From contig NC_057728.1 of the NCBI RefSeq assembly GCF_004010195.1, forward strand, positions 7,727,438 through 7,791,437: DNA of 64,000 nucleotides. Reading direction: 5' to 3'. Of the stretch, positions 119 to 62,680 are shown piece by piece (the first letter of the stretch is position 1; every line of letters starts with the position of its first letter). Under the pieces are notes generated by a model, which saw nothing but the letters and a program-made list of their open reading frames with translations, had not been told where the DNA came from and did not search any database. Source of the DNA: Chiloscyllium plagiosum (Eukaryota). The position numbers were made by a program, and so were the translations under genes.

Positions 119-307
119 TGAAAATGTGTTGCTGGAAAAGCGCAGCAGGTCAGGCAGCATCCAAGGAGCAGGAGAATCGACGTTTCTCTTCTTCAGGACG
201 TAAACGTCGATTCTCCTGCTCCTTGGATGCTGCCTGACCTGCTGCGCTTTTCCAGCAACAGATTTTCAGCTCTGATCTCCAGCATCTGCAGTCCTCACTT
301 TCTCCTC
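119..307. mobile_element. Penelope-like (PLE) pLTR-derived hairpin insertion, family A, with 15-bp TSD
   Basis: Arms 117-185 and 202-270 are near-perfect reverse complements; tail ...agcatctgcagtcctcactttctcc; TGATACTTACACTGC is duplicated at 104-118 and 308-322. Confidence 0.85.
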
Positions 308-784
308 TGATACTTACACTGCCAACCTTAGTTATTGAATACAAACATTCTCCATACAACCATTGTGTAGTGAAAGAGATGAATCAAATAATTGAATCCA
401 GCAACAATTCCTCTGCTTGTTATTTTAGATGCCCTGTCAGGAAATAATCTGCTTTATCTTCATGGTTTTTGAAATCATGTTAAATGATTTTAATATAAAA
501 TGCTGAGACTAATCTGCCCTGATGCATTGCCATTATCTCTGTGTGATGCGCATTGAACGAGCAATCCAGTTCCATCTCCCTGCTTCTCAAATAAAGATTT
601 GCATTTGCATAAATGGCTTTGCCATGTGGCCCAAAGCTCTTTATAAATCAATGAAGTCGCTTTCAAGATTAGGCGCTGCTATAATATCGGAAACACAACA
701 GCATATTTAAATGCAGCATACTCCTGGAAAACGGCAACAATATCAGGGTAATGAAGATTTTTTTTAAAATTGATTCGAATTGAG

Positions 785-1016
785 AAATAATTGCAGGCAG
801 GTGCTCTGGGGAAATCTCTACATGTCTCATTCAGAATGGGATCTTTTCCGTGACCCTGAACTGCAAAATGGGCTTAATGTGTCATCCAAAAGCTACCAAT
901 GACAGTACAGCACTCCCTCAGAATTGTCCAGGAAATGCCAGCTCAGGTATTGTTGTGTTGCCCCCCAAGTGGGGCTTGAATCCTCGTAGCCTTCTGGTTC
1001 AGACGTGAGTGCTACC
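785..1016 (-). mobile_element. Decayed Deu-domain SINE (SacSINE1/AmnSINE1-like)
   Basis: Reverse complement of the Deu-like core (gacagtacagcactccctcag, gggatctttt) and a tRNA-like head (cttgaatcc...gagtgctacc). Confidence 0.55.
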
Positions 1017-1317
1017 TATTGGGCTGCAAGTGGCATTGCTGCTGTAGATCATTGCCCGCATTTACAAATGCACATTGCTGCTGCATGTGTTCAGAGGCAT
1101 GAGCACTTGGTTTACCTGATGTGTCCCTAAGCCATGAGACTTCCAGTTCCCATCCAGCAGTGTGTGCCAAGTTAACGGGATCTGGTGACACTCCTTCATG
1201 CCTTTGCAGGATCATTGGCCTGATTGCTTTTGTGAAGGTGGTGGCACGTTGCCACCTTAAACCACTGCAGTCCATGTGCTTTAGGGACAGCCGTAATGCC
1301 ACAACGGAGATAACTCC

Positions 1318-1737
1318 ATGATTCAGGAATACCCAGATTATCCAGGTTCCAGGACTGAGGCAGGCAAGTGGACATGGGAGCACAACTGTGTGATTCATAT
1401 CAAGATCACCTGTGATTTCAAGATGAGAAAAACCTCTCCATTCATAGTAAGGCACAGCTGCAAGGGCCATCAAACATTTTATGCATTATCTCCATTCAAG
1501 AAAGTGATTTTTACACAACTGCAGTTTTGCTTTCAACTCTTGATCCCTTTCTCCTACTCTGAAAGGATTCATTCCTTGCTGGGGTCGGCCTCCATCTTCT
1601 GCACCTGGCTGCGAATAACTGTGCCACCCAAGCCAAGGGGTGGTTGGCATATATGGACCCAACAGAATAACTGGGGACCTGGAAGTGGAGATCCCCTTTG
1701 GTTCTGTGCCCCCCACCCCACCACATTCCTGTGTTAA
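1318..1737 (+). pseudogene. Possible highly decayed PIF/Harbinger transposase fragment
   Basis: ORF contains IHIKITCDFKMR and LLGSASIFCTWLRITVPPKP, resembling HARBI1-family NVQLVCD and LLGDxGYPLxxWLMTP in the expected order; the catalytic Asp is lost. Confidence 0.35.
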
Positions 1738-2012
1738 TGCAAAATCGTGGTAACAAAGGATTTCTGTATTATGGTCAGTGTGTGGAAAGCTGAAAAGAGA
1801 ACAGTGCCCTTTGTAGTAACCTGAATGGGACTGTTTGAAGATTTTTCTTTTGTTTGTCTGAGGAACAGAACTAATCCTGTGCAAGATGTGAACAGAATTT
1901 CTGTGAAGTCAGTCCAATCTCTGACTGGAAATCTGGAGACGTTCTAATGATTCTGTCTATCGGTCTGTGAGAGATCACCTACACTGCTAAGATGGGACAC
2001 ATATTTCATTTA

Positions 2013-2231
2013 CAGACTGTTTTGCTATAATGCATGTTTCATTAATGCAAATTCTCTGTAATGCGATTTACAAATTCAGGATACTGTTTCCAAAGCGCAA
2101 ACTTTTAAAGTGTGTATTGGTTACAATGCAATTCTGGCCCCATTAGTTTAAATGATGCTGCTATTGCGTGATTTTCTTATAACACAGGATTGCATGAGAA
2201 TGGAACTACCACGTTGTAGCAGAACCCATTG
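2013..2231. mobile_element. Tc1/mariner (Tigger/pogo-like) MITE
   Basis: Imperfect TIRs ta-cagactgttttgctataatgc / cgttgtagcagaacccattg; 5' TA flank; no ORF. Confidence 0.55.
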
Positions 2232-3551: not shown

Positions 3552-4157
3552 CAGAGTACAGGAGTTGGGAGGTCAGGTTGCGGCTGTACAGGACATTGGT
3601 TATGCCACTGTTGGAATATTGCGTGCGATTCTGGTCTCCTTCCTATCGGAAAGAAGTTGTGAAACTTGAAAGGGTTCAGAAAAGATTTACAAGGATGTTG
3701 CCAAGGTTGGAGGATTTGAGGTATAGGGAGAGGCTGCACAGGCTGGGGCTGTTTTCCCTGGAGCGTAGGAGGCTGAGGGGTTGAGAGGTTTACAAAATTA
3801 TGAGGGCATTGGTAGGGTAAATAGGCAAAGTCTTTTCCCTGGGGTCGGGGAGTCCAGAGCTAGAGGGCATAGGTTTAGGGTGAGAGGGGAAAGATATAAA
3901 AGAGACCTAAGGGGCAACTTTTTCACACACGGTGGTATGTGTATGGAATGAGCTGCCAGAGGAAGTGGTGGAGGCTGGTACAATTGCATCATTTAAGAGG
4001 CATTTGGATGGGTATATGAATAGGAAGGGTTTTGAGGGATATGGGCCGGTAGCTGGCAGGTGGGACTAGATTGGGTTAGGATATCTGGTCAGCATGGACA
4101 GGTCTGTACAACTCTATGACTCTATACCTACCATGCTGTACATCTCTATGACTCTAT
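3552..4157 (+). mobile_element. 5'-truncated CR1 (HER1-like) LINE, ORF2 C-terminus and 3' tail
   Basis: Translation LYRTLVMPLLEYCVRFWSP...LERVQKRFTRMLP...LGLFSLERRRLRG; tail repeat ctctatgactctat, present twice. Confidence 0.92.
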
Positions 4158-6428: not shown

Positions 6429-6454
6429 TGTATGCTTAGTGATGGTTTATTGGT

Positions 6455-6817
6455 CATTCAGGGGATTTGGGAGTTGGTGGTTCGACCAGCATTTACTGTC
6501 CATCCCTAGTTACCCAGAGGGCAGTTAAAAGTCAACCATATAGCTATGGGTCTAGAGTCACATGTAGGCCAGACCAGGTAAGTATGGCAGTTTCCTTCCC
6601 TAAAGGGCATTGGTGAACCAGATGGGTTTTTTCATGTCAATCAACCATGGTTTAATGCCACCATTACACACTCAACTCCAGGTCTATTTTGTTTTTAAAA
6701 AATGTAATTCACATTCTACTATCTGCCATCATGGGGTTGGAGCCCGGGTCCCTAGAGCATTAGCTGAGTTTCTGGATTAATCGTCCAGTGATTAAAACCA
6801 CTGGGCCATCGCGTCCC
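6455..6817 (-). mobile_element. tRNA-derived SINE, family 2 (ccatctggttcactaatgtccttt core)
   Basis: Reverse complement of the + copy at 59836-60168. Confidence 0.8.
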
Positions 6818-7722: not shown

Positions 7723-8061
7723 ATCATAGAATCTCTGCAGTGTGGAAACAGGCCATTTGGCCCAAATGTCACACTGACCCTCCAAAGAGTAACCCACCCA
7801 GACCCATTCCCCTACTCTATTACTCAACTTTTGCCTGTAACTAATGTACCTAAGCTACACATCCCTGAACACTATGAACAATTTATCATGGTCAATTTGC
7901 CTGACCTGCACATCTTTGGATTGAGGAAGGAAACCGGAGGAAACCCACACAGATGCGGGAAGAATGCTCAAACTCCACACAGACAGTCGCCCGAGGGTGG
8001 AATCAATCCTGCGTCCCTGGTGCTGTGAGGCAGCAATGCTAACCACTGTGAGCCACCATGC
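7723..8061 (-). mobile_element. HE1-like V-SINE
   Basis: tRNA-like head (A/B boxes), V-domain (gtctgtgtggagtttg...ttctcc) and CR1-like tail; matches 35117-35464. Confidence 0.88.
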
Positions 8062-8207: not shown

Positions 8208-8607
8208 GAGGATCGGTTAGCTCAATTGGCTGAGCAGCTGGTTTGAGATTCAAACAGGATGGGTCCAATTCCCACATTGTCTGAGTTTACCATGAAGGAC
8301 TGTCCTTCTTGATCTCTCCCCTCTCTTCAGGTGTGGTGAGATGGAAATGTGTTGCTGGAGAAGCGCAGCAGGTCAGGCAGCATCTAGGGAACAGGAGAAT
8401 CGACGTTTCGGGCATTAGCCCTTCTTCGATTCTCCTGTTCCCTAGATGCTGCCTGACCTGCTGCGCTTCTCCAGCAACACATTTCCATCTCTGATCTCCA
8501 GCATCTGCAGACCTCATTTTCTCTTCAGGTGTGGTGACCCCAGTCATAACTCTCTAATGATAGAGAGTCCCGAATAGTATTGTAAGGGTATGGCAACGTT
8601 ACCTTTA
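8208..8607 (+). mobile_element. tRNA-derived SINE, family 3, interrupted by a PLE hairpin
   Basis: Head ggttagctcaattggctg...gggtccaattccc; 3' end ctctaatg...atggcaacgttaccttta shared with 63530-63601. Confidence 0.6.
8340..8519. mobile_element. PLE pLTR-derived hairpin insertion, family A, with TSD of up to 18 bp
   Basis: Perfect inverted arms of about 65 bp; TCTCTTCAGGTGTGGTGA at 8322-8339 and 8520-8537 (part may overlap the element end). Confidence 0.88.
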
Positions 8608-10062: not shown

Positions 10063-10395
10063 TAATCATTCACTCACAGGATGTGGGCGTCACTGGCTAA
10101 GCCAAGATTTATTGACTGCCCCAAATTGCCCAGATGGCATTCAGAGTCAACTATGGGTCTGGAGTCACATACAGTCTAGACCAGATAAGTTTCCTTCCCT
10201 AAAGGATGTTTGTGAACCAGATAGGGTTTATTTTTTCTCTTGGCAATCATGTCATGATCATCGTTAGACTCTTAATTCTAAATTTTTTTTGTTGCATTCA
10301 AATTCCATCACTGGAATTGAACCCAGGTTCCCAGTACATTACCTGGACCTCTGGATTAATAGTTTAGTGATGATATCTTGAGGCCATTGCCTCCC
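10063..10395 (-). mobile_element. tRNA-derived SINE, family 2
   Basis: Same blocks as 6455-6817. Confidence 0.75.
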
Positions 10396-11836: not shown

Positions 11837-12072
11837 CATGATATGGAGGTGTTGGTGTTGGACTGGGGTGGACAAAGATAAAAAAAATCTAACACCACCA
11901 AGTTATAGTCCAACAGGTTTATTTAGAAGTACTAGCTTTCGGAGCACTGGTTCCTTGTCAGGTAACTAGTGCCCCAGTAGCTACCTAATGAAGGAGGAGT
12001 GCTCCGAAAGCTTGTATTTCCAAATAAACCTGTTTGACTACAACCTGGTGTCGCGAGATTTTTAACTTTGTC
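11837..12072. mobile_element. PLE pLTR-derived hairpin, family B
   Basis: Arms about 11871-11969 and 11978-12072 are imperfect reverse complements; each carries a decayed hammerhead motif with an AGCT helix III. Confidence 0.8.
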
Positions 12073-14235
12073 ACATCTCTGGGGAAATTGGTATCTGACA
12101 CGTACCAGCCTCATATCACATCTCTGATCCACTTACAATATGGTTCTGCACTTCAATGCTGTACTTTGGAGTCCACTAGCACCCCTCATTATAATGCTGT
12201 TGCCCAGGTATTTTCCATGCAGGGGTATGCACCCAGCTCATGGTTTGGACCAGGGTTTCTCTTGGGTCATGGTTTTCGGCAGTCATCAGTCAAGGTGGTG
12301 GACTAGTTGATGCCAATCTCAGTCATGCCAGCCCCAATGGCCAAGCTCTAAGGGGAGTAGTCCATAGTCACATCAATAGAGACCCCCTTCAAGCAAGGGT
12401 TCCTGATACAGTTAGTCAAAGGAAGCCTTCCCTCTTGGTCCAGAGCCTGGGCGCAGTCAGTCCACTGACCTATTGGGGCTTTCATGGTCGGGTGGGGGTG
12501 TATACCTGTACAATGAAGGAGTAGACTCCACTCAGTCCTGTGGGTCCTGTGCAGCTGGTCCAGGGAGTCACAGGAAGACAGTCAAGAATTGTACAGATAT
12601 TAAACAAGGGTGTGGTCACACCTCACGCTGCCTGCCAAAGTCGCTCGAGGTGGGGATGGGCCACAGTCCATCCTGGGGATTCGGACATGTGAAGTCAACA
12701 GGATGCTACCATGTGTGGGAGAGAAGTTGGAGAACTTAATTCGATTGAGTTGGCTGGGCTACAGACAAGAAGTAGGGTAGCAACTCCAAATGCATTGTGT
12801 GATGACAGAGCAGTGAATGGAGTGGTATGATGGGGCGGGGGAGAGCTCCTCAACAGTCAGCATCACCCTGGCTTCCATTGGAGCAGGGAACAGTGCACTA
12901 CTCTGCCTGCCATATTTACTCGGTCTGCCAGAGAGTAAACTGGGAAGGTGGCGATTTAGATGATTGAGTTGGGTGGCGACGTGGATACATGCAAAGCCGA
13001 CGGGTTGGCTGACAGGGCTACCAAGAAGGGTTGGTGTGTATCTGGCAGTTCACCAATAGGAAGAGGCGGAGCTGAAACTCACTGCCTGAGGAACAGGAGA
13101 CATGTTTGCTTCCATTGTGCGGTAAACACCAAGGAAATGGCTGCCAACATGCCCAGAGTTGTTGGGGATAGGCCTTCAATTTTGAGTGATGGGAGGCCTA
13201 TCAAAGGGCATTAGTTGTCATATAGTGAAACTGAAACATACCTGTGAGCACTGCAACCTCGGGCACTATCCTATTGTGTGCATCCTTTCCCCGAGCTCTC
13301 TCGACTCTGTTGATATAAAATTACAAATCTATTGCACCAATGGCTGTGATTCACACCTAATGGTTGTGGCCTGACAAGGTTGATCCTAGTTGCCAAAGGA
13401 ACAAACACGTGGTGCAGGAGCTGCTCACTTCACCCCTGGATTGGTTCCTCCTCTGGCCGGGTGCCTCCTGGCACAGCCCTGCCTCCTTCTGAAGAAGGGA
13501 CACCCAGAGTGAGGTCCTTGTCCTTCGTTTCCCCCCCCCCCCCCCGCCCCCCATCTCCATGCTATTGTAGACCATTGGAGTGCAGACCTGACTGTCCACG
13601 ACAGCAGCCAACCTGTCCATGTAGGCAGCCAGATGTTGGCATGCCTGAGGCAGAAGGGTTTCAACAGCGTTGTTGCAGTCCTGCAGCCCTTTGTGACTGG
13701 TTTTCCCAGTGCTGCTCCTAGGCATGTCAGTGAAGTTCCTGATTTCTGACACCATGGGGAGACTCCTCCTCTTCTGCCTGGGGCTGACCAGGTGCCTGGT
13801 CTCCGTCAGCCAGTGTCCTGGGGCATTTGCTCCTTGCCCAGCCGCAGAGACGTGGCAGTGAGGTCCTCCTGACTCTAATCTAGCAAAGATCCCCAGCAGG
13901 GTGTCAGAATGTGAGCTGGTGGAGGGTGCAGGAGGCTGATGTTTTGGCTGAGGAGTCGGAGCTGTCTTCCTCAGAGTCAAGGGGATGTCTGTCTTGAAGG
14001 GCCTCCCTCTTGATTGCGGAGACTAAGAAGTGAATGCATCACCCAGAAGTTCTGCCATGTTTTGAATACATGCACAGTTGGGATACTGCTGCTTGCTTGG
14101 TTGCTGAGACATCAATGTTTCAGTATCTCTATGGGACTGTTCCCTTGCCTTTGAGGCCTGAAGTCCTCTGACTGTTGTGCACCCCTATCTCCCATCCTGG
14201 CCCCTTCAGCCTCATCATGGGCTGTTTTCTTTAGG

Positions 14236-14366
14236 GAGAAAGTGAGGTCTGCAGATGCTGGAGATCAGAGATGGAAATGTGTTGCTGGAAAAGCGCAGCA
14301 GGTCAGGCAGCATCTAGGGAACAGGAGAATCGACGTTTCGGGCATTAGCCCTTCTTCAGGAATTTC
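14236..14366 (-). mobile_element. Single-arm PLE pLTR insertion, family A, with 11-bp TSD
   Basis: TTTTCTTTAGG at 14225-14235 and 14367-14377; nearly identical to the 8340 element. Confidence 0.85.
14332..14359 (-). ncRNA. Minimal hammerhead ribozyme motif with intact core
   Basis: CUGAAGA-A-GGGC uaau GCCC-GAAA-CGUC; helix III is the palindrome ACGU; helix I is weak. Confidence 0.65.
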
Positions 14367-17202: not shown

Positions 17203-17499
17203 TACAGTAATCGAGGTCTTGGCAACAGGCCCATGCTGCCCAGTTCTCACAATTAAACTAATCTGATTTGCCAATATATGAGAGTTCCGTTTGTAAGTCC
17301 AATTATGTGACTGATATTTGGTGATAATGGAGCTTTTCTTTTCCATATTCAGTCTCTGGATGTAGGCATTGCTGGTGAAGCCAGCACTCATTACTCATCC
17401 CCAGTTGTCTTTCAGATGTCTGTTTTGGACTCTCTTTTTATTGAGCTGCTATGATTTGTACTACTGGGGAGGAGAGCTCTCTATTATTCTCTTGTTATA

Positions 17500-18066
17500 A
17501 AGTCCTAGAGATGTACAACACAGACCCTTCAGTCCAACTCATCCATGCTGATCAGAAATCCTAAATTAATCTAGTCCCATATCCCTTCCTATTCCTTTAC
17601 CCATCCAGATGTCTTTTAAATGTTGTAATTGTACCCGCCTCCACCACTTCCTCTGGCAGATCAGTGCATACACGCATCATCCTCTGTGTGAAGACGTTAC
17701 CCCTTAGACCCCTTTTAAATCTCTGCCCTCTCACCTTAAACCTATGCCTTTTAGTTGTGGATTCTGCTACCCTGGGGGAAAAAAGACGTTGTCTATTTAT
17801 CCTATCCATGCCCCTCATGATTTTATAAACCTCTATAAGGCCACCCCTCAGTCTCCGACGCTCCAGGGAAAACAGCCCCAGCCTATTCAACCTCTTCCTA
17901 TTGCTCAAACCATCCAATCTTGGCAACATCCTTGTAAATCTTTACTGCACCCTTTCAAGTTGAACACCATCTGTCCAACAGCAAGGAGACCAGAATTGCA
18001 TGCAGTATTCCAAAAGTGACCTAACCTATGTCTTGTGCAGCTGCAACGTGACCTCCCAACTCCTAT
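17500..18066 (-). mobile_element. CR1 3' fragment
   Basis: LGLFSLERRRLRGGLIEVYKIMRG...FTQR...LPEEVVEAGTITTFKRHLD. Confidence 0.92.
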
Positions 18067-27085: not shown

Positions 27086-27104
27086 CCAATCCTTGCAACA
27101 TCTA

Positions 27105-27659: not shown

Positions 27660-27940
27660 GTCATCTTAATTCCAGATTTTTATCACATTCAAATCCCACC
27701 ATCTGCCGTGGCAAAGATTTGAAACTGGATCCCTAACATCTGACCTGGGCCTCCAGCAACAGACCTCCCTCCGGATCCTTCGCTCGACACACTTTCCTCA
27801 TTCCTGAAGAAGGGCTTATGCCCGCTACGTCGATTCTCCTGTTCCTTGGATGCTGCCTGACCTGCTGCGCTTTTCCAGCAACACATTTTCAGCTCTGGAT
27901 AAATAGTCTGACAATAATATCACTAGGCCATTGCCTCCCC
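27660..27940 (-). mobile_element. Family-2 SINE 5' half interrupted by a PLE piece
   Basis: SINE blocks 27660-27752 and 27895-27940 are contiguous in the copy at 10260-10395. Confidence 0.65.
27753..27894 (+). mobile_element. PLE pLTR fragment, family A
   Basis: ctgaagaagggcttatgcccgctacgtcgattctcc... (GAAA mutated to GCTA). Confidence 0.8.
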
Positions 27941-28178
27941 ACCAACCTATTACAGTTATCTCCTACCTGCATCCACCTATCGCCGTCCCACCTACCTTCC
28001 CGTCCTCCCCACCCCCTAATTGTCTCTCAGTCCCCTTCCCCCTCCACATTCCTGATGAAGGGCTTAGGCCCGAAATGTTGACTGTCCTGCTCCGCGGATG
28101 CTGCCTGACCTGCTGGGCCTTTCCAGCGTCACGTTTTTCGACTCTGACTCTCCAGCATCTGCAGTCCTCACTTTCTCA
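27941..28178 (+). mobile_element. PLE pLTR, family A variant, with C-rich leader
   Basis: CTGATGA-A-GGGC ttag GCCC-GAAA-TGTT at 28052-28079, then the family A tail. Confidence 0.8.
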
Positions 28179-28397
28179 TCCTGTTTATTCACCAGTCAAT
28201 GGAACTAAAACACATTAGATGGTCTTTAGTAAGCAGTACAGTCCAGGGACCCCACAATGCAAAAGAAAAAAAAAGCAACCTCTTTAATTTTCTCTTTCTT
28301 AGGCTGGCCCTTAGGATGGAGGATAACCTTTTTTCCTGCTCTGGTACAATGGATCCTGAGGTGATTAAACAGTGCAATGCTGCATCCTTGAATTGGA

Positions 28398-35880: not shown

Positions 35881-36852
35881 AGGTACAAACAGTCCATATT
35901 ATGACGTAGAGTGGGCCATATTTGAGTAAATTCTCCCTTTGTATTGTGGAGGTATCTCTGACACTACCTATCCTCTTTTTTTCCCCCCCATGCCCAACCT
36001 CATGAGGTGGCACTGCAAGAGTCATTGCACAAAGCTATGAAAGTTCTCATCAGGGAAAGATAAGCTAGTCTTTTTGCCCTTTCTGTTGCGTTCCTGTTGC
36101 AAAAAACCATCGTAACCTCCACCACCCAATGGAAACTATTCGCTGTCCCTTTCACCAAGTGAGCTCAGTCCCCAAGCCTGGAAACATCAGACAGGGGTTT
36201 TGGTGGGAAGCTGATCACTTACAGTAAACAATCAACAGAAAATAACTGCATGTGAATCCAGATGCTGTTTTAAGCATGTTGAAAGGGGAATGACTGTCAC
36301 TGTATCCTTTTGTTAACCTCACAGTGAATGATGACACTTAATAGAACTGCCAAGCACTTATTGACTCAACATCCTCCTCAATACAGTAAGTACATTGATA
36401 TTTGGACTCTAGCTGTCCTACTGGTGAATTCAAACAGTGCACTCACTCAGTGATGCTGAAGAGTGAGGGAGCTGCACTATAAAGACTGGGAAGTGATCAG
36501 ATCTGTGTGCTGTCTCTGTTTCAATGCTTCATTTAGACACACTCCTCTGGACATCTGAAAGTGGGACAACTGGTGGATGATAAACTGTGTTTAGTTTTTA
36601 TTCCCCAGGGATTCATAAGAGGCCATTAAACCCTTCCACCCTGTCCCACTATTTAATTATGGTTTCACTTGTATAGTGCACCCACTGTTGTTTTACCCCA
36701 AATAACTTCCCTTTCTGTGTGATGCTGGGCATTGAATGGTGTTGGACTGTTTAACTATGGACCGCAGCACAGTCAAAACTGAGAATGTCTATTTCATACT
36801 CTGACTTTCCAGCTAGGATCATTTGACCAGGGACAGGAATCTCTGGATGAAT

Positions 36853-37111
36853 TAGGAGAAAGTGAGGACTGCAGATGCTGGAGATCAGAGTCGAGAGTGT
36901 GGTGCTGGAAAAGCACAACAGGTCAGGCAGCATCCGAGGAGCAGGAAAATCGACGTTTCAGGCAAAAGCCTTTCATCAGGGCTGACGAAGGGCTTTTGCC
37001 TGAAACGTCGATTTTCCTGCTCCTCGGATGCTGCCTGACCTGCTGTGCTTTTCCAGTACCACACCAATCTAGACTCTGATATCTGGCATCTGCAGTCCTC
37101 ACCTTCACCTA
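36853..37111. mobile_element. Full PLE pLTR hairpin, family A, two arms of about 128 bp
   Basis: Arms meet at ...tttcatcag-gg-ctgacgaag...; no TSD seen. Confidence 0.88.
36952..37009. ncRNA. Back-to-back hammerhead motifs on both strands
   Basis: Minus 36979-36952: CUGAUGA-A-AGGC uuuu GCCU-GAAA-CGUC. Plus 36982-37009: CUGACGA-A-GGGC uuuu GCCU-GAAA-CGUC. Confidence 0.6.
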
Positions 37112-38135
37112 ATGGGAGATGGGGGCCAGTCAAATGTCTGCTTTGTCCTGTTTAGTGCCTACATTCTCGAGTGAGTGCAACTTCAGGTAATGGGTGACTC
37201 CTGACAAGTGATGTATACCAAACCTATTATCTGTCTGTGCAATGCTCGTTTAACTGGGAGCACTGTTATAAAATTGATTTTATTTTCAGCCTGTCACAAA
37301 ACTATTTAATTTTTCTATACATGTTCTACCTATTTAATAGCCTGGATGATGCCCTTGATTTGGCAGAAACACTGGAGTCAGTCTAGGATGCTTCCAGTCC
37401 TGCTGTGATCTCAATGTTGGCAAAGTGCACCAGGCAGGTTGTAGCCCTGACATTCTCGCAGTTTTCAATGGATTAATACTATCTGACTGGCGTGATGGTT
37501 TCTGTCACCCACTTAGCCAGTTGAAGGCATGGAATATCCATAATGTTGATCACAGTGTGAAAGAAGCGAGGGTTAAGCCTGTGCCATTAGTGTGGGCTCC
37601 TGTTGATATTTGGCTTGGACTCCCCAGGCGCCCATTTTCAAAAGCAGTTTGGCCCTCATCAAGACAGGAAAGCATTCCAGCACTAGAGAATTCAATCAGT
37701 CAATAGCAGTAGAGAGTTAGAGATGTTAGCAGCATGAATGCAACACAATGCATGCCATGATGCAAATGCTTAGCCTTTGTCTATTGTTGGAACTGTTCAA
37801 CTATGCCCCGCATTCAGGAATTCTCTTTCCCTAGCCCATTGCCTGGCTTTGTCACTCTCCATCTTATACAAACCTCCCTAAAAGCAATGTTTACAATGAC
37901 TGAGCTATCACTCTTCCATCACTCTCTTGGTGCCTGAGCCCACCAATTGAAGCCACTCAGGAAGTTGAGGCCCTTAAAAGTGCTGTCAAATAGTAGGTTG
38001 CTGGCGACAGTACCACAGACCTCCTTTTCTGTGCCTTTGCATTGTGAATGGCACTTCTTGTCCCCGTGGCAACTCAAACAATCATTGGCCAAGAGGCCAG
38101 CAAAATCTAAAGGACCTCAATAGCGTTTTATTTCT

Positions 38136-38270
38136 TTAGGGTGTCGGTTTGCTCGCTGAGCTGTAGGTTTGATATCCAGGCGTTTCATTACCTGGCTAGG
38201 TAACATCATCAGTGGCGATCTCCAAGTGAAGCGAAGCTGTTGTCTCCTTTCTATTTATATGTTTGGCCTG
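38136..38270 (-). mobile_element. PLE pLTR fragment, family C, with hammerhead motif at 38176-38215
   Basis: cca-CUGAUGA-U-GUUACCU agcc AGGUAAU-GAAA-CGCC-ugg (U16.1 mutated to C). Confidence 0.75.
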
Positions 38271-39065: not shown

Positions 39066-39120
39066 ATGTTTGCTGCCTAGCTTTTAGGGCAAGTACTGAC
39101 CAGAACCCAGTGATGGGAGA

Positions 39121-39211
39121 CCAAAAGAGAAAATGCTGGAAAATCTCAGCAGGTCTGGCAGCATCTGTAAGGAGAGAAAAGAACTGACGTTTCGAGTCTA
39201 ACTGACCCTTT
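39121..39211 (-). mobile_element. Short PLE pLTR insertion, family E, with 11-bp TSD
   Basis: GTGATGGGAGA at 39110-39120 and 39212-39222; minus strand GGGUC aguua GACUC-GAAA-CGUC. Confidence 0.8.
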
Positions 39212-39352
39212 GTGATGGGAGAGATGTATTGCCAGACATTTGCATCGATAAGGTGTGGCAACCAAGCTCTATCCTGACACTGTGTAGCCCTTTATCGATT
39301 GTTCTCCTCTTCGTCACCAAGTAGAACTGAGGTGAATTATACCATAGAATCA

Positions 39353-46094: not shown

Positions 46095-46585
46095 AAACCA
46101 CAAGGAGCTGTAGATGCTGGAAATCAGAAACAAAAATGGAAACTGCTGGAAAAGTTCTGCAGGTCTGGCAGCATCTGTGGAGAGGAAGCAAAGCTAACAA
46201 TAAGTGACCCTTCTTCAGAATGGATGGTAGTTAGGAAAATGTTCATATTAATGCAAAAGATGGGGTGAGGAAAGGGAGGGAGGGAAGGAGAAGTAAACAA
46301 TAGGTGGAGATAGAGTTTAAAGAGTAAGAAACACAGTTGAACAGACAAGGGAAATGGGTAAAGGTCAATGGGAACTATTAGTAGCTTATGATAGGCTGGT
46401 TGTGGTAGCAGCCCATGTGATAACAAGGTTCAGTGTGTTGGAAAGACATGAGAGAAGGTGCTCAAGCCTAAAATTGTTGAACTTGATATTGAATCCAGAA
46501 GGCTGCAGGTTTCCTAAGCAGAAAATGAGATGCTGTTCTTCCAACTTGTGCTGAGCTTCTCTGGCTTGTTGCAGTGTTCTAGCCA
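46095..46585 (-). mobile_element. PLE 3' fragment: endonuclease C-terminus plus family-E pLTR
   Basis: EAQHKLEEQHLIFCLGNLQPSGFNIKFNNFR, typical of the PLE ORF end, is physically linked to the pLTR. Confidence 0.85.
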
Positions 46586-46589
46586 AGCA

Positions 46590-51366: not shown

Positions 51367-51912
51367 GGTCATAAAGTCATAGAGATGTACAACACAGAAA
51401 CAGACCCTTCAGTCCAACTTGACCAGATATCCCAACCGAATCTAGTCCCACCTGCCAGCACCCGGCCTATATCCTTCCAAACCCTTTCTATTCATATACC
51501 CATGCAGATGCCTTTTAAATGTTGCAATCGTACTAGCCTCCAACACTTCTTCTGGCAGCCCATTCCGTACACGTACCAACCTCTGCCTGAGAAAGTTACC
51601 CCTTAGATCTCTTTTATATCTTTCCCCTCTTACCTTAAACCTGTGCCCTTTAAGTTCTGGACTCCCCCATCCCAGGGAAAATACTTTGTCTATTTATTCT
51701 ATCCATGCCCCACATGATTTTATAAACCTCTGTAAGGTCACCCCTCAGCCTCTGATGCTCCAGGGAAAGCAGCCGTAGCCTATTCAACCTCTCCCTATAG
51801 CTCAAATCCTCCAACCCTGGCAACATCCTTGTAAATCTTTTCTGAACCTTTTCAAGTTTCACAGCAACCTATTGATAAGAAGGAGACTAAAATTGCATGC
51901 AATTTTCCAAAA
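51367..51912 (-). mobile_element. CR1 3' fragment
   Basis: KLEKVQKRFTRMLPGLEDLSYRERLNRL...RLRGDLTEVYKIM. Confidence 0.92.
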
Positions 51913-52086
51913 GGCTGTGAAACATAGCAAAACTTCATCTGACCACCTGCAATTCTAATAGAAACATTTGAAGCTTTCAGAGCAAGGTTTGGGCCAATTC
52001 AGATTGCTGCCTCTCACTTCCAGATATTCACTTTGGGCTGCAGTTAACCTACCCCTCTGTGTGCGAAATGATAGAATAGAAATGGT

Positions 52087-52820: not shown

Positions 52821-52821
52821 G

Positions 52822-53590: not shown

Positions 53591-53619
53591 TGATAGGGCT
53601 GGACAGACTGGATGCTGGG

Positions 53620-53685
53620 GTCAACATTAGAGTGGTGCTGGAAAATCATAGCAGGGTCAGGCAGCATCCGAGGAGCAGGAAAATC
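53620..53685 (-). mobile_element. 66-bp PLE pLTR insertion, family A, with 12-bp TSD, inside an old CR1 3' end (about 53590-54010)
   Basis: CTGGATGCTGGG at 53608-53619 and 53685-53696. Confidence 0.8.
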
Positions 53686-55897
53686 TGGATGCTGGGCTGA
53701 TGATTTCCCTGGCTGGGTGTTCTACAACAGTGGGTTATGGCCTCGTTATACAGATAGATCAATTTAGTTTCCACTGAGGCCAAATAAATTCACTCAAATT
53801 GGTTAATCAATGGCATTCTTTACCATAAAAAGCTGTGAAGACCAGTCACTAAACACATTTAAGAAACAAACCCCATTTCTGGAGACTGACCATCCCAACG
53901 GGTATGAGGACTTTGGTGTTGAGATAAAGCATCAATCAGGACCTTGTTGAATGATAGAATGGGTTTGATGGGTGGAATGGCCTTCTCCTTCTAAAATCTG
54001 TTTCCATATCCTAAATTTGGAAAACTACTGTCTAAATGTAAGCTGTTTGCTTGCTTACTTTCTGTAGATCTATTTGTCTAATGTTTTATGAGTGTGTGCT
54101 ACTTTTAATGTTGATTTTCTGTTGACTGGTAAAGACAATCCCTCAGTGAGCAGGGCAGGGTGAGAAACCCAACAAGAGAAGGGGAGAGTGCAAGGAACAA
54201 AGTTTGGAGATAAATTAGGTTCGAGAGACCAAGAAAGGCATAGGGAAGGTAAATAAACCAAGATAATTAACAAGAAGGAGGAATGATGGCTGCAGTTGGT
54301 ATAGGAAAGTGGTTGAGGTGGAACATGGGAGATAAACAAAGAAAGAGGATGAGCAAACATAGGGAAGGAAGCTTATAGGAGAGAGTGAACAATTTGGAAA
54401 GGAAATATAATAAGGAGACAAAGTGTTGTTTTAAGTGTTGCAGTAAACTTGAATGAAGAGAAAGAAGGGGCCATTTTTAGGGTAGCATAAAAGATCGGTA
54501 AAAGTGCAAATAAAAAATGAGTGCTGAGATATTTGTGTACGTGCATGAGAGAGAATGAGGCTGAAATTGTTGCTAAGTTCAGAGTCCCTCTGAGCAAATT
54601 GCACTTCAACCCTTGTTTCCCTTTCTGACATTTCCCTTGCAGCTGATCAAAATTCATTGAGAAACCCAATAATTCATTCGTCCGTCACCATGAGACGTAG
54701 GAGCCACTTGAAAAATGTGACCTTCATTTTAAAAACAAGCTTTCTATGTCTGGCTTAGAATTTAGAAATCTCCAGACAGTGCATTCTCTGGCCAGCCTGT
54801 CTGGACCAAAGGATAAAGAGAGAGATCCTCCCCTGCATATTGCATTTCAGTCACAGAGCAGAGTACCTCTTAGACGCTTCATGTAATGAGTTACTGCTGT
54901 ACAATATCCAAAGTTATATTGGCAAATATAGCTATCGGCTTATATTGGTGCAAGTAGCCATGCTAGTATGATCATTTAATCTGTTTTGTCAACAAGAATA
55001 TGAGAGCAATGAATATTGGTCTGAATGTGACATTTATGCTTAACGCAAGAACTTTTAACAGCCCCGAAACAATTCAGTCAATTTTGTCCATACATTGACA
55101 ACGCCCAGAAATGCAGCATTCACTCACTTCTCATAATGATATCAGCTATTCAGATGTGATCGGAGCTTGAGCTTATAACTGTCTGATGCAGTGGAGGGGG
55201 TGTGATCTCTGGAGTGACTCTCAAAACAAGTGGATAGCAGTTGTCAGAGTAGCTCTTCGCTGATGTAGAGAGAGGGATTTTATTGTCTGGCTTTTTACCG
55301 CGATTTGATATAACACATTATTTGTATTGTCGTTATGTGCAGCCAGCTTGTAATCACAGTTCAAACCTTTACTACGCACTTTGGAGGCAATCTGACTGGT
55401 ATATATGCTGCTGATTGAATTTTTTGGTAAATTAATGTAGCGCCCACATCATTTTGGGATAAACGTTACACTAGTAAATAAAATGACAGAAATTTGCCAC
55501 TTTTTGTGACAGTAATACGAGTATAAAATGTGGAATGAGAAAAGACCGCTCTGATATGAATTCACAAGGGCACAGAACTCTTAGATCACAAAATTTCACT
55601 TCAATAACCTGAAGGTAGGTGAACACTTGAGGGCATTATCAAGGGAATGCGGCCTTGCTTGAGCTGCCATCTTTTGCATATGAGATGAAACCACAGGTCT
55701 GCCCTCAAAGATGGGGGTCAGTGATTTTTTTTGGGGGGGCGCTGTTTGCAACTACTGGTATTTGATTCCAGAGATATTTTCAGTGTATGAGCAGCACACA
55801 TCCTGCACTAAGCATTCAGACACAGTGTTTGAAAAGATTTGTAACTCAGGTTATGGATGAGGTTGCAGATTCGTTCACCAAGCCAGTGTGGTTTTCT

Positions 55898-55937
55898 GCA
55901 GACGTTTTGTCACCTCGCGAGGTGACATCATCAGTGT
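55898..55937 (-). ncRNA. Hammerhead motif in family-D pLTR (G12 mutated)
   Basis: aca-CUGAUGA-U-GUCACCU cgcg AGGUGAC-AAAA-CGUC-ugc; a deleted counterpart lies at 56967-56994 (+). Confidence 0.6.
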
Positions 55938-56071
55938 GCCTTCAATAAAGTGTTGGTGGTTCTATCCCACCTGGTGTTTGTCCGTCTGTTTGTTGGTACT
56001 TGCGGTTCTGTATCTGAGCAGTTTGTATACAGGGTCTAGTTCAATGTGCTTCTTGATTGAGTTCCTGTTGG

Positions 56072-56273
56072 TGTCTGGATTAGAGTGGTGCTGGAAAAGT
56101 GACGTTTCAGGCAAAAAGCCCTTCATCTGGAATAGAGCTATTCCTGATGAAGGGTTTTTGCCCTAAACATTGATTTTCCTGCTCCTCGGATGCTGCCTGA
56201 CCTGTTATGCTTTTCCAGCACCACTCTAGTCTATGCTCTGGTTTCCAGCATCTGCAGTCCTTGTTTTCACCTA
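56072..56273. mobile_element. Family-A hairpin nested inside the family-D PLE, 8-bp TSD
   Basis: CCTGTTGG at 56064-56071 and 56274-56281; the host reading frame joins across it. Confidence 0.85.
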
Positions 56274-58039
56274 CCTGTTGGAGTGCCAGGCTTCAAGGAA
56301 TTCTCTGGCGTGTCTCTGTTTTGCCTCTGCTAGAGTGGTTACGTTCTCCCAGTTGGGTCTGTGTCCTTTATTTGTGTGGTTGAAAATGAGAGTGCTGGTC
56401 ATGTCTGGCAGTGGCAAGTTGGTGTTCGTACACTCGTCTGATCAGTTTTCTTTCTGTTTGTCCTATGTAGTGTTTTTCCCCAATCCTTGCAGGGTATCTT
56501 GTAAATCATGTTCATCCTGTTGGATGTGGGTGTCAGGTCTTTAACCTTTTGTGAGAAGCTGGTGAAAGGTGTTCACTGGTTTGTGGGCTGCTATGATTCC
56601 TAAGGGCTTGAGTACTTGTTTCTGATATATCTTTGATGTATGGTGTAGTCACTTGCGTGCCTGGTCGCGTAGTGTTTCCTCCTTTAGGTTTGTTGAGCAT
56701 GTATCAGAGGATAGTGCTCTTGGGACACCCGCTTCGTTTAAATCCCTTGAATAGGTGTTCCTCTTCTGCCTTCTGGAGTTCCTCCACACAGACAACAAAG
56801 GACACTAATTCCACCGGGACAATGTAACCTTCATAGCAGAGGCAAAAACAGAGACACATTGAACTGGACCCCGTATACAAACCACTCAGATACAGAACCG
56901 GATGTATCAACAAACAGAGTCACATAAATACCAGGTGGGATGGACCACCAACACTTTATCAAAGACGCACTGACGAGGTCACCAAAATGTCTGCCGTAAA
57001 CTACACCGGCTTGGCGAACGAATCTACGACCTCATTCAATCACGTTTTTTGGGCTTTATCTCACTTTTTTGCTCTGAAGTCTGATTTTGAGAGTTTGGCC
57101 AATCCAGGGAAGACTTTGTCATTGTCATATTCATTCATCGCTGAAAGTCTCTTAGAAAGGTCTGCGATGCCCAGGATCAATAAGACTGTTTAGTTCCAAA
57201 CTTTTTAACTTAGCACTTGTGTCTTCTCATTTGGCTCTCACGATCAGAGTTAGGTAAGCATTACTTGTCAATTTTCATGATCATTGTTAGCATCTCACAT
57301 ACCTGCACAAATGATCTGTAAGCGAAACATCCATCTGCACCAAATATGCAGATCAATTTCAAAAACTGGGGACGAAATATGAAAACTGGAATGAAAAGAC
57401 AGCTGGATTCTTCTGACCCCCCAGACTTATGCTTGTTGTGACAAAATGTCTTCCATTCTGGGAGTTTCTTCACGAACTTAGAGACCTAAGTACCAGAAAT
57501 ATCCTTATTGTACATCTCAGAAGTTTTCCAACGCATCACTGCCTTTTCAAGGTCAGACTTGAATGTTATTTTACTGGGAAGTGATACTTAGAATACATAC
57601 AAGATGGGAAAATGATATTTTCAGTATATGGACAAATGTCTTTGAGATGTAGCTTAGATGTTGATTATCCTCAACAGTAAGATTCTAACTGAGCAGATGC
57701 TTTCAGTTAAAGGTCGATAAATACATCTTGATCCTTTGCCTTTGTTGTTAGTAGTGGCGCTGGTCTGAGTAGTCAACATATCTGGTACAAATATTATGAA
57801 ACATACTCTGAAATCAAGTTGCTGTTTACAAGCCAACCCCAGTTTGAATTCAGCCAGCGTCCTCCATTTTGGTCATTTGAGTTTATATTTTTCAATTCAA
57901 ATCCTTTGTGTTATTATTTTTGCCCTGGTGTATGAACTTTTCTTCATTGCAAGCATTCTTCAAGGTGAATCTCAAAATATATATCCAAGTCTCATCCCTG
58001 AGATTTAAAGCAGGATTATAGCTCAAAAAATCAGTGTGG

Positions 58040-58700: not shown

Positions 58701-58889
58701 TTTGGAACAAAATATAGGCCTGGGTTTTGTGATCAGCTGAGAGGCAACAGCATTTGTCACTGACCAGAAAGAAAGCTGCGCAAAAAGGTTCTGGCAATCT
58801 CTGTGGCCTGAAATTCCCCTTGTCTGAGAGCAGTTTAAATCTGGCACGCAGTTCAAGAGATTTCCAAACACGTGTTGCCAGAAAACTGA

Positions 58890-59006
58890 GAGAACAAAAC
58901 AATCAGAAACAAGAACAGAAATTGCTGGAGAAACTCTGGTCTAGCAGCATCTGGGATGAGAAAGCTGAATTAACGTTTAAAGTCCAGTGACGCTGCTTCA
59001 GAACTG
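58890..59006 (-). mobile_element. PLE pLTR fragment, family E
   Basis: Similar to 46095-46220 and 62555-62680. Confidence 0.7.
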
Positions 59007-59264
59007 TAGTCACATTGAAGTAGTCTTAGAAATAAACCAAAGCTGCAATTTAAGAGCATTAAAACTCTTACTTTAATAATAGCCTTCAGAATGTGAAATG
59101 AATGATTGCAATAATGGGTTTACAATAGAAAATAAAGATGAACTTTAAAACAAAACTAAAACTGTGTATAGACATAAATTAGAAATGTGATTATGAGAGC
59201 AAGGTGATGAACTGAAATGGCAAGCGACTGGGAGGTTGAGTTTGGGCTTGCAATTTGAACATGC

Positions 59265-59460
59265 TTCTAGTTGCTTGTTATTTCAATACACCACCTTGCT
59301 GTCAGATGTACATTTCTTTTTCAGGCCTGCTGCAATCTTCAGGAGACATTCATCACAGAGCTGGGAAAGAGCACTTTATTTCCCGATTAGACACTTCACG
59401 TCATTCCAAACTCAACACTGAGTTCAGCAACTTGAGACTCTTTCCTCTCTTCTAATATTG
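59265..59460 (+). mobile_element. Old PLE endonuclease C-terminal fragment
   Basis: VACYFNT...GLLQS...KEHFISRLDTSRHSKLNTEFSNLR aligns by eye to the 46386-46586 peptide. Confidence 0.65.
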
Positions 59461-59539
59461 TTTTCTTACCCCCCCCCCTCTGCCAGAGTGTATCTTGGTT
59501 TCACGTTTCTGTTCACAGTTGAGTTGAACTTCATCCTGT

Positions 59540-60800
59540 TATCAATACCTACTCTGGACAACGCTGAACTGGATGAGAGGGTAAGCTGGGAGGAGGATGC
59601 TGTGTGATTTGGATAAGTTGGGTGAGTTGGAAAATGTGCGGCAAGTGAAGTAGAATGTAGATAAATGTGTAGTTAATTACTTTGGTAGCAAAAGCATAAG
59701 AACTGATTATTATCTGAATGATGATGGATTGGAAGAAGGGAGAACTGTGCAGTGAGAACTGGGTGTTCTTGTCCACCACCTGACAGTAAGCGTGTAAATG
59801 CTGCAGATATTGAAGAAGGGCAAATGATATGTTACGGGGGAGGTGATGGCCCAGTGATGTTATCACTGGATTGTTAATCCAGAAACCCAGGTCATGTTCT
59901 GGGGACCTGGGTTTGAATCCTGTCATGGTAGATGATGGAATTTGATTTCTATAAAAATCTGGAATTAACAATCTAATGATGACTATGAATCCATTGTTGA
60001 TTGTCAGAAAAAAAAATCCATCTGGTTCACTAATGTCCTTTACCTGATATGGCCTACTTGTAACTCCAGACCCACAGCAATGTGTTGACCCTTAACTGCC
60101 CTCTGGGATGGGCAATAAATGCTGGCCTAGCCAGCAACACCCTTATCCTGTCAATGAATAGAAAAAAATGTTGTCCTTCAGAGTGAGAGGGTCCGTGTAC
60201 AAGAGTAGGGATGCCATGCTGTAATTGTGTAGGGTCTTTGGTGAGACCACACCTCGAGTATTATGTACAGTTTTGGTCTTTGTATCAGAGGAAGTGTGTT
60301 TTGGCTATGGAGGGAGTACCACAGATGTTTACCAGGCAGATTTATGGGCTTGCTGGATTGACGTATGAAGAGAGACTAGATTACTTAGGATTGTATTCAC
60401 TGGAGTTAGGATGAATGAGAGGGGATCTTACAGGAACCTGTGAAATTCTGACCGGGCTATTAAGATCAATGCAGGAAGGATGCTCCCAATGAACAGAGTC
60501 CAGAACCAGAGGTCACAGTTTAAGGGTACAGGGTGGACCATGTAGGACTCAGATGAGGAGACATTCTTCACCCAAGGAGTGGTGTACCAGTGGAATTCTC
60601 TACCACAAAGTGGTTGAGACCAATTAATGTTTTCGAGAAGGAGTTAGATGTAGTTCTGAAGCTAAAGTGATCGAAGGATATGGAGAGAAAGCAGGAACAG
60701 TGTATTGAGTTGAATGATCAACCATCATTGTATTGCATGGCAGAGCAGGCTTGTAGGACTTGATAGCCTACTCCTGTACCTATTTTTATGGACTAATGCT
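59540..60800 (+). mobile_element. CR1 ORF2 3' part split by a family-2 SINE
   Basis: LVRPHLEYYVQFWS...YEERLDYLGLYSLE plus tail. Confidence 0.8.
59836..60168 (+). mobile_element. tRNA-derived SINE, family 2, near full length
   Basis: A-box tgatggcccagtgatg, B-box gggtttgaatcc, tail aatgaatagaaaaaaa. Confidence 0.85.
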
Positions 60801-60802
60801 GT

Positions 60803-61060
60803 GTCACTTCGCAACAGCCATTACCCATCTCCTTTTGCTTTTAGCACCTTTTGAGCTCTGGTATCCCTTACTTTTCAATCTGGACCTTTCCGAACAGCAT
60901 GACACCCATCTCATGTGCACCTCTATTCTGTCCCAAAGAACGGTCACTGGATTCAAAATGTTCACTCTGTTTCTGTCTCCACAGATGCTGCCAGACCTGC
61001 TGAGATTCTCCAGCACTTTGTTTTCATTTCAGATCGCTAGCAACCACAGTGTTTTCATTA
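60803..61060 (+). mobile_element. PLE pLTR fragment, family E
   Basis: ggtcactggattcaaaatgttcactctgtttctgtctccacagatgctgccagacctgctgag. Confidence 0.7.
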
Positions 61061-61534
61061 ACAAAAATATGTATTTCCTCAATCATAGGGAAGAAAAATG
61101 TGACTGTTTCCTCAAAGACAAAAATAATTTTCAGGGCAGGCCCAGATCATTAGACTTCGTTAAGGTGTAACTTTTCCATTGGCTTTTCCAGATGGAAAAT
61201 TCACGTGTGGTCGAAGTTATCATTAATTCATAGCATTTCCACTGATTCTTTCTGACATTTGATACACCCAAGTCCACGCAACATCATTGCTGTAGCCAAC
61301 AAATGGCATGCAAAGGGGGGCATGATAAGATCTCAACAACATAGTCTGTGCAACAGGGTACACTGACTAGCAACAGCCTCTGGATGTGTACATGGCACAG
61401 GACATGAGAATTCTAATGAGCTGCTACCTGTCTGAGTGGAGTCACAATGGTGAAGGCTCAGAATTTCAACACCACATAATCTCAGCCGCAAAACAAAATG
61501 TTTAAGATAGAAATGGGGAAATGAGAATAACCTA

Positions 61535-62440
61535 ATCAAACTTGGAGATGATAAGACCCCTGGTCCAGATTGATTTCATCTACAAATAGTAAACAAATTA
61601 GCAGCGGAACAGTTACATATAGAGTCATAGAGATGTACAGCATGGAAACAGACCCTTCGGTCCAACCCGTCCATGCCGACCAGATATGAAAAGGCACAGT
61701 AAACAATTAATCCAATCTTGGACCAAGGAAGTTAGAACAAGTCGAGGCATCTAAAGACCAATTAACATCACCTCGGTGTCTACAAATAGTAAACAAATTA
61801 GCAGCGGAACAGTTACATATAGAGTCAGAGAGATGTACAGCATGAAAACAGACCCTTCGGTCCAACCTGTCCATGCCGACCAGATATGAAAAGGCACAGT
61901 AAACAATTAATCCAATCTTGGACCAAGGAAGATAGAACAAGTCGAGGCAGCTAAAGTCCAATTAACATCACCTCGGTGATATTAGAATTCTTGTTCAAAG
62001 ATATAATAGAAGAACATACAAAGAAATTATGATATTATGAAAAGAAGCATGAATTTCAAAAGGAAGGGTAATACAGGACCTTCCTTCTTGAATAATTTTT
62101 CAGAAATAACAGGAAGACCAAATGAGGGTGATGTTATAAACATTGTCATTTGTTTGGTTTTCAAAGGTCTGATACATTAAGCTCAGAACATGTAAAGTCA
62201 GGGGCAAGTAGCAGCCTGGATAGAGAACTGTCTACAATGCAGTAAATGGAGAGCAGGGGTGCAATGTGATTCCTTGGGCCAATGGGGAGAAATGTGGCTG
62301 CTCAGAAAGCAGAGACCACTTGTTATAAGCAGTACTCGGCCAGACTAGTTTTCAACTTTAAATTATAGGAACGTGAACAAGTCCAACAGTGAAACAAGCA
62401 AAGACTCAGATCCATCAGGTTTTGATTGTTTAAAAGCAAA
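61535..62440 (+). mobile_element. Very old CR1 RT N-terminal remnant
   Basis: KTPGPD*FH (KSPGPDxIHP) and downstream QHGF/TNL/VDVVYLDF-like decayed blocks. Confidence 0.5.
61579..61978. repeat. Tandem duplication, 2 x 200 bp
   Basis: 61579-61778 versus 61779-61978: 6 substitutions, no indels; each unit includes a minus-strand CR1 tail of about 67 bp. Confidence 0.95.
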
Positions 62441-62554
62441 GCAATGCAAATGCTAGTTATCTGAAATAAAAGCAAAATGCCTCAAGCCCTTGGCATATCT
62501 GGTGGCTTCCAGTGGAGAAGAAAGAAGGATGAACACAACAAATCGATGATCAAA

Positions 62555-62680
62555 CCGAGAGCTGCAATGCTGGAAATCTGAAACAAGGACAGAGGTTGCT
62601 GGAGAAGCTCAGCACGGTCTGGTATCATCTGTGGAGAGAAAAGAGTTAATTTTGAGTCCAGTGAACCTTCTTCAGAACTA
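62555..62680 (-). mobile_element. PLE pLTR fragment, family E
   Basis: Minus strand guu-CUGAAGA...GACUC-AAAA..; rest matches 46095-46220. Confidence 0.7.

Follow-up and report, generated by a model that had tools for sequence, protein, structure and literature searches.

A sharp 5' edge beside the minimal hammerhead motif of short Penelope-like copies in the genome of Chiloscyllium plagiosum

Background

We examined a 64,000-nucleotide stretch of the genome of the shark Chiloscyllium plagiosum (NCBI RefSeq assembly GCF_004010195.1, contig NC_057728.1, positions 7,727,438 to 7,791,437 of the forward strand; hereafter the window, with positions counted from its first base), in which short pieces of Penelope-like elements (PLEs) carry hammerhead ribozyme motifs in their pseudo-long terminal repeats (pLTRs). 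These motifs belong to a known kind, the minimal type I hammerhead of Penelope-like pLTRs (Cervera and De la Peña 2014). An earlier note on the window, made from its letters alone, had inferred that cleavage by so minimal a hammerhead depends on dimers; this central inference is already published, because the minimal core, the extra nucleotide, the palindrome, the dimer dependence and copies in the thousands are all found in PMC4209133. New here is a sharp 5' edge of short copies, which begin at an initiator-like A lying 4 nt (family A) or 8-9 nt (family B) before C3 of the motif. Searches of a literature collection poor in subscription papers turned up no account of copies beginning at the hammerhead edge, and none of such motifs in sharks.

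Results

Penelope-like pieces in the window

Profile searches gave 22 Penelope-like pLTR pieces in the window (12 of family A, 5 of E, 2 of B, 2 of D and 1 of C) in place of the roughly 14 copies counted before, at a density of 344 per Mb that is ordinary for this genome. Twelve of the 22 make up six head-to-head inverted pairs, and only two pieces, 27804 and 28052, stand close together on the same strand, the first of them broken. A strict descriptor, asking for the full core, helix II of at least 4 bp, a paired A-N-N-U, H17 and helix I of at least 2 bp, was passed by two pieces, 14359- and 28052+, and had no match in any of 200 shuffles of the window, while all 11 core bases are kept in four copies (14359-, 28052+, 36979- and 36982+). 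Target duplications of 8-18 bp flank several of the inserts. No hammerhead family was among the 9 matches (E-value up to 1) of an Rfam search of the window, the microRNA-like matches of which are the inverted pairs themselves, and ten long open reading frames (ORFs) of the window had no Pfam match.

Both motifs that pass the descriptor belong to family A. The first, an intact minimal hammerhead at 14328-14363 (minus strand; C3 14359, C17 14332), lies in a young short copy at 14232..14363 (-) that begins at the initiator-like A, has an 11-bp target duplication and finds near-identical copies genome-wide. The second, at 28048-28083 with helix III AUGU and U17, lies in the copy at 28043..28180 (+), 248 nt after the copy at 27782..27897 (+), which is the upstream partner of the only close same-strand pair and is broken by a change of GAAA to GCUA. 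Four inverted pairs are of the same family: 119..307, where both motifs are broken (helix II deleted in the minus arm, no CUGA box in the plus arm) and a 15-bp target duplication stands at 104 and 308; 8338..8527, whose minus arm begins at G5 and whose plus arm begins close to the cut site, with an 18-bp target duplication; 36852..37112, where both cores are complete (C3 36979- and 36982+), the helix I 5' strands are replaced and the predicted fold is a 120-bp hairpin; and 56087..56273, nested in a family D insertion, with both motifs broken (U4A; G12U) and an 8-bp target duplication. The remaining family A piece, 53611..53685 (-), has no core and begins at G1.1, the predicted cut site, and its 12-bp target duplication overlaps this first G.

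Among the other families, B forms an inverted pair at 11880..12070, with motifs at 11930-11964 (-, G8A) and 11982-12016 (+, G5A), and D a head-to-head insertion at 55816..57040, with one motif at 55898-55937 (-, G12A), a second beginning at 56967 (+) in which half of helix II is deleted and, between them, a broken GIY-YIG-type remnant at 56277-56744 (-). The Poseidon-like family C has one copy, 38120..38270 (-; motif 38176-38215, U16.1C). Family E is present as a short copy at 39114..39213 (-), which has an 11-bp target duplication and no CUGA box; a longer copy at 46102..46564 (-), which reaches an endonuclease C-terminal remnant and whose motif is partly deleted; two old copies with degenerate motifs, at 58901..59017 (-; an endonuclease remnant at 59257-59472 faces the opposite way) and at 60912..61055 (+); and a copy at 62558..62680 (-) with G12A and a partly deleted helix III. 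The earlier note had located the A motif (C17 at 14332, minus strand) and those of B, C and D correctly; its E motif, put at 39121, is in fact a remnant at about 39184-39213 (-) lacking the CUGA box. Every B, C, D and E copy that it quoted has a core defect (G5A, G8A, U16.1C, G12A or deletions).

Genomic load and decay

To set the window against the whole genome of 3.56 Gb, 140 stretches of 10 kb were picked regardless of content, giving 1,342,502 called bases. In this sample we counted 436 pieces, or 325 per Mb (bootstrap 288-362), and 74 distinct motifs passing the strict descriptor, or 55 per Mb (bootstrap 42-71). These figures extrapolate to about 1.1 million pieces and 188,000-196,000 intact motifs genome-wide, and exact-pattern searches set floors of at least 48,333 for one family A pattern and at least 2,007 for part of the C motif. 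The very large ribozyme load suspected earlier is thus borne out by the 74 intact motifs in 1.34 Mb. All 11 core bases are kept in 87 of the 140 sampled family A copies that span the motif, so the claim that most copies are core-mutated is right for the window and wrong for sampled family A, where the chief loss is G12A at a CpG (23 of 140 copies). The ACGU palindrome of helix III is also eroded by CpG decay in old copies. Within family A the core is not more conserved than its flanks, because a downstream GATGCTGCC block equals it in conservation, a comparison that says little about copies decaying neutrally. The bulk of the genomic copies are probably inert relics that decay as their CpGs are lost.

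Motif architecture, lineages and covariation

The majority sequences of all five families have CUGANGA, one extra nucleotide, helix II, GAA, a palindromic ACGU or AGCU, H17 and a short helix I, and the claim of one shared architecture therefore stands for the family majorities, though not for most window copies, given the two strict matches among 22. The extra nucleotide, between 9 and 10.1, is present in 73 of the 74 distinct strict matches, though the descriptor also allowed none, and helix II opens with a GC or GU pair in almost every aligned row. Helix II has only 4-5 bp in A, B and E, and the helix III palindrome is ACGU in A, C, D and E and AGCU in B, where it is paired in 41 of 42 rows.

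The five families are not unrelated: A and E have about 60 nt in common, the GATGCTGCC block among them (E-value 1e-10), C and D share the motif itself (E-value 8e-7), and we therefore recognize three lineages, A+E, B and C+D. Their link to Penelope-like pLTRs is upheld by endonuclease remnants upstream of the pLTR in genomic relatives of A (L009), B (L036), C (L055, L056 and L059) and D (L063), and a relative of E (L084) retains the C-terminal part of the endonuclease only. A genome search with the Pfam GIY-YIG model gave one weak match and no full element. We tentatively take A, E and B to be Neptune-like and C and D to be Poseidon-like, from motif patterns and from similarity among the fragments.

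Covariation was tested on sequence-based alignments of B (42 distinct rows), C+D (35) and A+E (51). Helix I in B is split between CG (19) and UA (19); C+D have GC 14, UA 6 and CG 5 in helix I and CG 14 and UA 8 in helix II; and the first helix I pair of A+E is CG in 23 rows and UA in 21. Neither the paired share nor the covariation score was reached in any of 500 shuffles, and the paired share was 81-93% for the real structures versus 16-56% for slid structures. Two of the five covariation measures were not significant, namely further pair types (in every alignment) and changed pairs, which were borderline (15-41 of 500). Covarying helices, as had been claimed, are thus found as compensatory pairs within lineages, and the changes come down to a few events at the subfamily level instead of many independent ones.

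About 20 nt 3' of the cut site, families A and E have a GATGCTGCCWGACCTGCTG block in common (14294-14314 on the minus strand, for example), which matches the ribozyme core in conservation. This block may be an ORF start (read as M-L-P-D-L-L), a site of protein binding, or a branch point ahead of the acceptor-like word TTTTCCAG. Two candidate features were set aside. A GAAA before ATTC in the first matches came from selection by the query and is not a finding, and U16.1C of family C, which looked like an amplified variant among the top matches, occurs in 2 of 100 copies of an unselected list (U16.1 is T in 96 of the 100 genomic family C copies listed) and was therefore rejected as evidence that dead motifs spread.

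Where short copies begin

Positions here are counted from C3, with G1.1, the cut site, at +28 in family A. After removal of 20 unusable pieces and 37 that were edge pieces or long, 188 of the 245 sampled family A pieces remained, of which 66 start at -8..-2, with a mode at -4. The same edge is seen in non-inverted pieces, where 29 of the 65 starting within 60 nt on either side begin at -8..-2 (p 4e-19), and target duplications confirm an end at -6..-2 in 6 of 15 cases (34 tested). Genome-wide, a pattern for one A subfamily has 3,944 matches, and a hand tally of 100 matches listed (1 excluded) put the starts at -8 (2), -7 (2), -6 (7), -5 (9), -4 (29), -3 (19), -2 (7), -1 (10), 0 (3) and +2 (11), with 4 of these 100 at -7 or further up. 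For family B, whose pattern has 7,951 matches, the 100 matches listed and tallied by hand comprised 49 long copies, 1 excluded and 50 truncated, with starts at -11 (2), -9 (9), -8 (10), -7 (7), -6 (6), -5 (4), -4 (5), -3 (2) and -2 (5); the edge at -8/-9 thus takes in 19 of the 50 truncated copies among the matches listed, and 2 begin further up. Family E starts fall at -9..-1 in 29 of 79 cases.

Exactly at these edges, the long copies of A have CTCATT, those of E TCAGTT and those of B TCCACW, words that we read as initiator-like. About 30-32 nt upstream of the edge stand TATAAA (B), CATAAA (E) and TTTATCT (A). Because the edge follows the initiator and not the helix, we infer that the RNA start lies at the edge, which in A and E would be the first base of helix I. 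At the other end of the copies, 3' ends form two clusters about 30 nt apart.

Arrangement of copies

Tandem dimers, which the dimer proposal had made the usual layout, are not what the sample holds: an intact partner of the same strand and family lies within 500 nt of 2 of the 74 intact motifs and within 5 kb of 8, versus 10 and 24 for an intact partner on the opposite strand, all of these counts being lowered by the ends of the 10-kb stretches. A tandem-repeat scan of the window found no tandem hammerhead array. One natural same-strand pair, with two intact family A motifs 174 nt apart, was noted in a sampled stretch (L002:1516-1790). Inverted arms, on the other hand, stand directly upstream of 106 of the 188 non-edge A pieces and, in family B, of 35 pieces out of 59, a score that 5 of 300 random flanks reach. 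The five short inverted pairs of the window have predicted folding energies of -69 to -226 kcal/mol, and in such pairs the single sense motif is predicted to be buried in a long hairpin.

Discussion

A reading of the short copies

We think it probable, judging from sequence comparison, that the pieces are the inserted 3' ends of three Penelope-like lineages with a minimal hammerhead motif, and that the short copies are reverse transcripts of uncut RNA starting on or just before the first strand of helix I. An initiator, together with a TATA box in B and E and a conserved T/A-rich box in A, would set the RNA start 4-9 nt before C3; the element protein would prime inside the RNA, about 100-130 nt downstream, at the tail; and reverse transcription would run off the capped 5' end to leave an insert of about 135 bp. 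Inverted pairs would arise when two cDNAs are primed on opposite strands of one target and their ends are joined. Cutting would need a second copy, either the other pLTR or a second RNA, because helix III is loopless, and probably protein help as well; it would remove a capped leader of 32-40 nt, and it seems to be rare or late. Of these elements, we ourselves infer where the RNA starts, that it is capped and that priming occurs twice. If so, copy ends offer a genomic readout on the role of the ribozyme, pointing to transcripts that begin on helix I and are for the most part copied without being cut, in agreement with one in vitro system.

Several observations weigh against this reading. No edge is seen at the motif in C (11 usable copies) or in D (17), and the edge of E may partly reflect upstream divergence, because E is old and has only 6 long references. 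Family A is without a canonical TATA box, and an extra cap-like G at the starts is no more than suggestive, with inverted arms confounding 8 of 10 cases in B and 14 of 29 in A. The endonuclease remnants match Pfam PF01541 (GIY-YIG) below the cut-off in A, C and D (E-values 0.02-0.06), and those of B and E gave no GIY-YIG match. In Penelope of the fruit fly the start is found 46 nt ahead of an intron and not at the motif (PMC2377424). Finally, a second pattern, with 977 matches breaking between +20 and +33 and a subfamily set different from that of the 3,944-match pattern, has 21 of 100 matches listed starting at G1.1 (+28), versus a mean of 6.6 nearby (P 6e-6), and cut RNA could also make a small contribution to this bump.

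Cleavage, stalling, pairing or chance

The bump at +28 and the one window copy that starts at G1.1 (53611..53685) are points for the 2014 model, also the emphasis of the earlier note, in which cleavage is required: within a full-length transcript the motifs of both pLTRs would form a dimer and cut, so that an RNA of unit length, or a circular one, is set free as template. So is the retention of core and helices across three lineages with compensatory changes, which indicates that the motif is under selection in active elements, and dimeric and trimeric constructs do cleave at a low level (PMC4209133). The excess at +28, however, sits in inverted junctions. Sixty of the 100 listed places were checked for inverted arms, including 16 of the 21 at +28 (one +27 place was unscored), and 11 of these 16 are inverted junctions, while the 5 of the 21 outside this check share the same recurring junction string; 9 of the 21 at +28 are one recurring junction, which is explained by helix I microhomology or complementarity. 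Non-inverted copies among the 60 places have no cut-site peak (2, 1, 2, 4, 3, 6 and 2 at +25..+31), starts at -4/-3 exceed cut-site starts about ninefold or more (about 48% of 3,944 versus 21% of 977, both from the matches listed and for different subfamily sets), and close same-strand partners are rare. Catalytic mutants, moreover, left insertion in vitro unaffected (PMC11167929). The active dimer can be drawn, but its predicted fold was above the best alternative in energy, and thus not the lowest, for 5 of 5 real copies, a result that also speaks against the model, although dimer energies by themselves neither support nor exclude cleavage, because the energy model ignores core contacts and protein. 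Weighing these points, we regard an obligatory cleavage step as unlikely for the truncated copies examined here.

The 5' edge might instead be a stop or a joining point, with the reverse transcriptase stalling after helix I, or with endonuclease or microhomology repair trimming at an ATT-like word. The lizard enzyme prefers to cut 5'-ATT-3' (PMC11167929) and family A short copies begin with ATT, and junctions often have microhomology; yet in E the edge falls at AGTT, and in B it falls at ACW, which is 5 nt beyond helix I, and it thus tracks the initiator and neither ATT nor the helix. There are also almost no ends just upstream of the edge, as expected if the template itself ends there. A stop or repair origin consequently seems to us rather improbable.

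More doubtful again is the proposal that the motif is mainly an RNA dimerisation signal, in which the ACGU or AGCU palindrome and swapped helix I strands hold two RNA 5' ends together and their cDNAs join head-to-head. The frequency of inverted arms directly upstream of A and B pieces, with junctions concentrated in the motif, and the retention of the palindrome in all lineages fit this proposal; but conservation extends to the catalytic bases, a clustering of junctions at the RNA start is expected anyway, twin priming is accounted for, with no need for RNA pairing, by the dimeric protein predicted in PMC11167929, and Naiad elements, which have no hammerheads, still make inverted structures (PMC8557442). 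A fuller form of the idea, to which we give just as little credence, is that transcripts of vertebrate Neptune-like elements start on the hammerhead and are copied without being cut, that the palindrome pairs the 5' ends of two template RNAs in the manner of a retroviral dimerisation signal, and that a protein dimer writes two cDNAs into both strands, joined head-to-head. If true, such RNA pairing would explain both the inverted pLTRs and the conservation of a barely active ribozyme. Chance resemblance to a hammerhead, for which one could cite the shortness of the motif and a helix I of only 2-4 bp, is hardly credible given 74 strict matches in 1.34 Mb, 33 real matches in the first 60 stretches versus 0-1 in their shuffles, the compensatory pairs and a position the same as in published elements.

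Other repeats in the window

The window contains further repeats. A two-copy tandem of 200 bp at 61579-61978, 97% identical and holding a repeat end, is either a recent local duplication or an assembly artefact, and a pyrimidine minisatellite at 32195-32559 has 12 copies of a 30-bp unit with 99% matches. A dispersed family with a tRNA-like head, presumably a short interspersed element, occurs at 15042, 35113, 43366 and 47612 on the plus strand and at about 7770-8048 on the minus strand. Fragments from the 3' end of another abundant repeat, probably a long interspersed element, lie at 3555-4103, 17491-18069, 26648-27149, 40638-40865 and 51368-51913 and recur in many sampled stretches. Short matches to the L009 region upstream of the pLTR, at 6528-6634, 10074-10220, 25743-25793 and 59837-60166, may be either Penelope coding remnants or another repeat.

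Comparison with known systems

The lizard element mentioned above, the Poseidon element PAc of Anolis, was described by Frangieh et al. in 2024 (PMC11167929). The sharp edge in our data is found in the Neptune-like lineages (A, E and B) and not in C and D. PAc and the copies described here share a pLTR hammerhead and two priming sites bracketing a 30-40 nt tail, and the lizard work reports internal initiation, extension of both target strands, protein-assisted cleavage and unprocessed RNA as the dominant substrate (PMC11167929). In PAc the ORF starts in stem II and the data are biochemical (PMC11167929), whereas our support is the genomic distribution of ends.

With the endonuclease-bearing PLEs Neptune and Penelope/Poseidon, the copies share a C-terminal GIY-YIG-type domain followed by the pLTR, heavy 5' truncation, head-to-head copies, an optional tail, a putative TATA box plus initiator, and target duplications, there of about 8-10 bp (PMC8557442, PMC3846280). 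Complete elements of that group are characterised by a telomerase-like reverse transcriptase in a single ORF flanked by two pLTRs. Of the copy traits of these PLEs, 5' truncation, inverted pLTR copies, an optional tail of 30-40 nt and target duplication are all found here; truncation, inverted pLTRs, tails and a putative TATA box and initiator are treated across PMC8557442, PMC3846280, PMC2377424 and PMC6155905, where the role of the ribozyme is called unclear. Non-LTR (non-long terminal repeat) retrozymes (PMC7229834), like the short copies, are non-coding, hammerhead-bearing and PLE-derived, and a 2026 preprint ties tandem retrozymes to PLEs (bioRxiv 10.64898/2026.07.22.740005). They are, however, tandem arrays with a motif in each unit, whereas the copies here are dispersed solos and inverted pairs, and no tandem array with a complete hammerhead per unit, as a retrozyme would have, was found in the window.

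The nearest relative is the minimal hammerhead of PMC4209133, with which the present motifs share the CUGANGA core, one nucleotide between 9 and 10.1, the G10.1-C11.1 pair, a loopless palindromic 15.2-16.2 pair and the dimer reasoning that goes with it, a short helix I, more than one consensus family in a genome (several in each case), a predominance of truncated solo copies, and opposite-strand pairs. They differ in helix II, which here has only 4-5 bp in A, B and E, and in number, with some 190,000 intact motifs in this one genome versus about 4,000 in the coelacanth and about 9,000 in Xenopus, that is, 20-50 times the vertebrate counts of 2014, which were obtained with other descriptors and assemblies and so counted differently. 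They differ above all in their 5' ends, which here lie at an initiator on helix I, a feature not reported in the accessible portion of PMC4209133.

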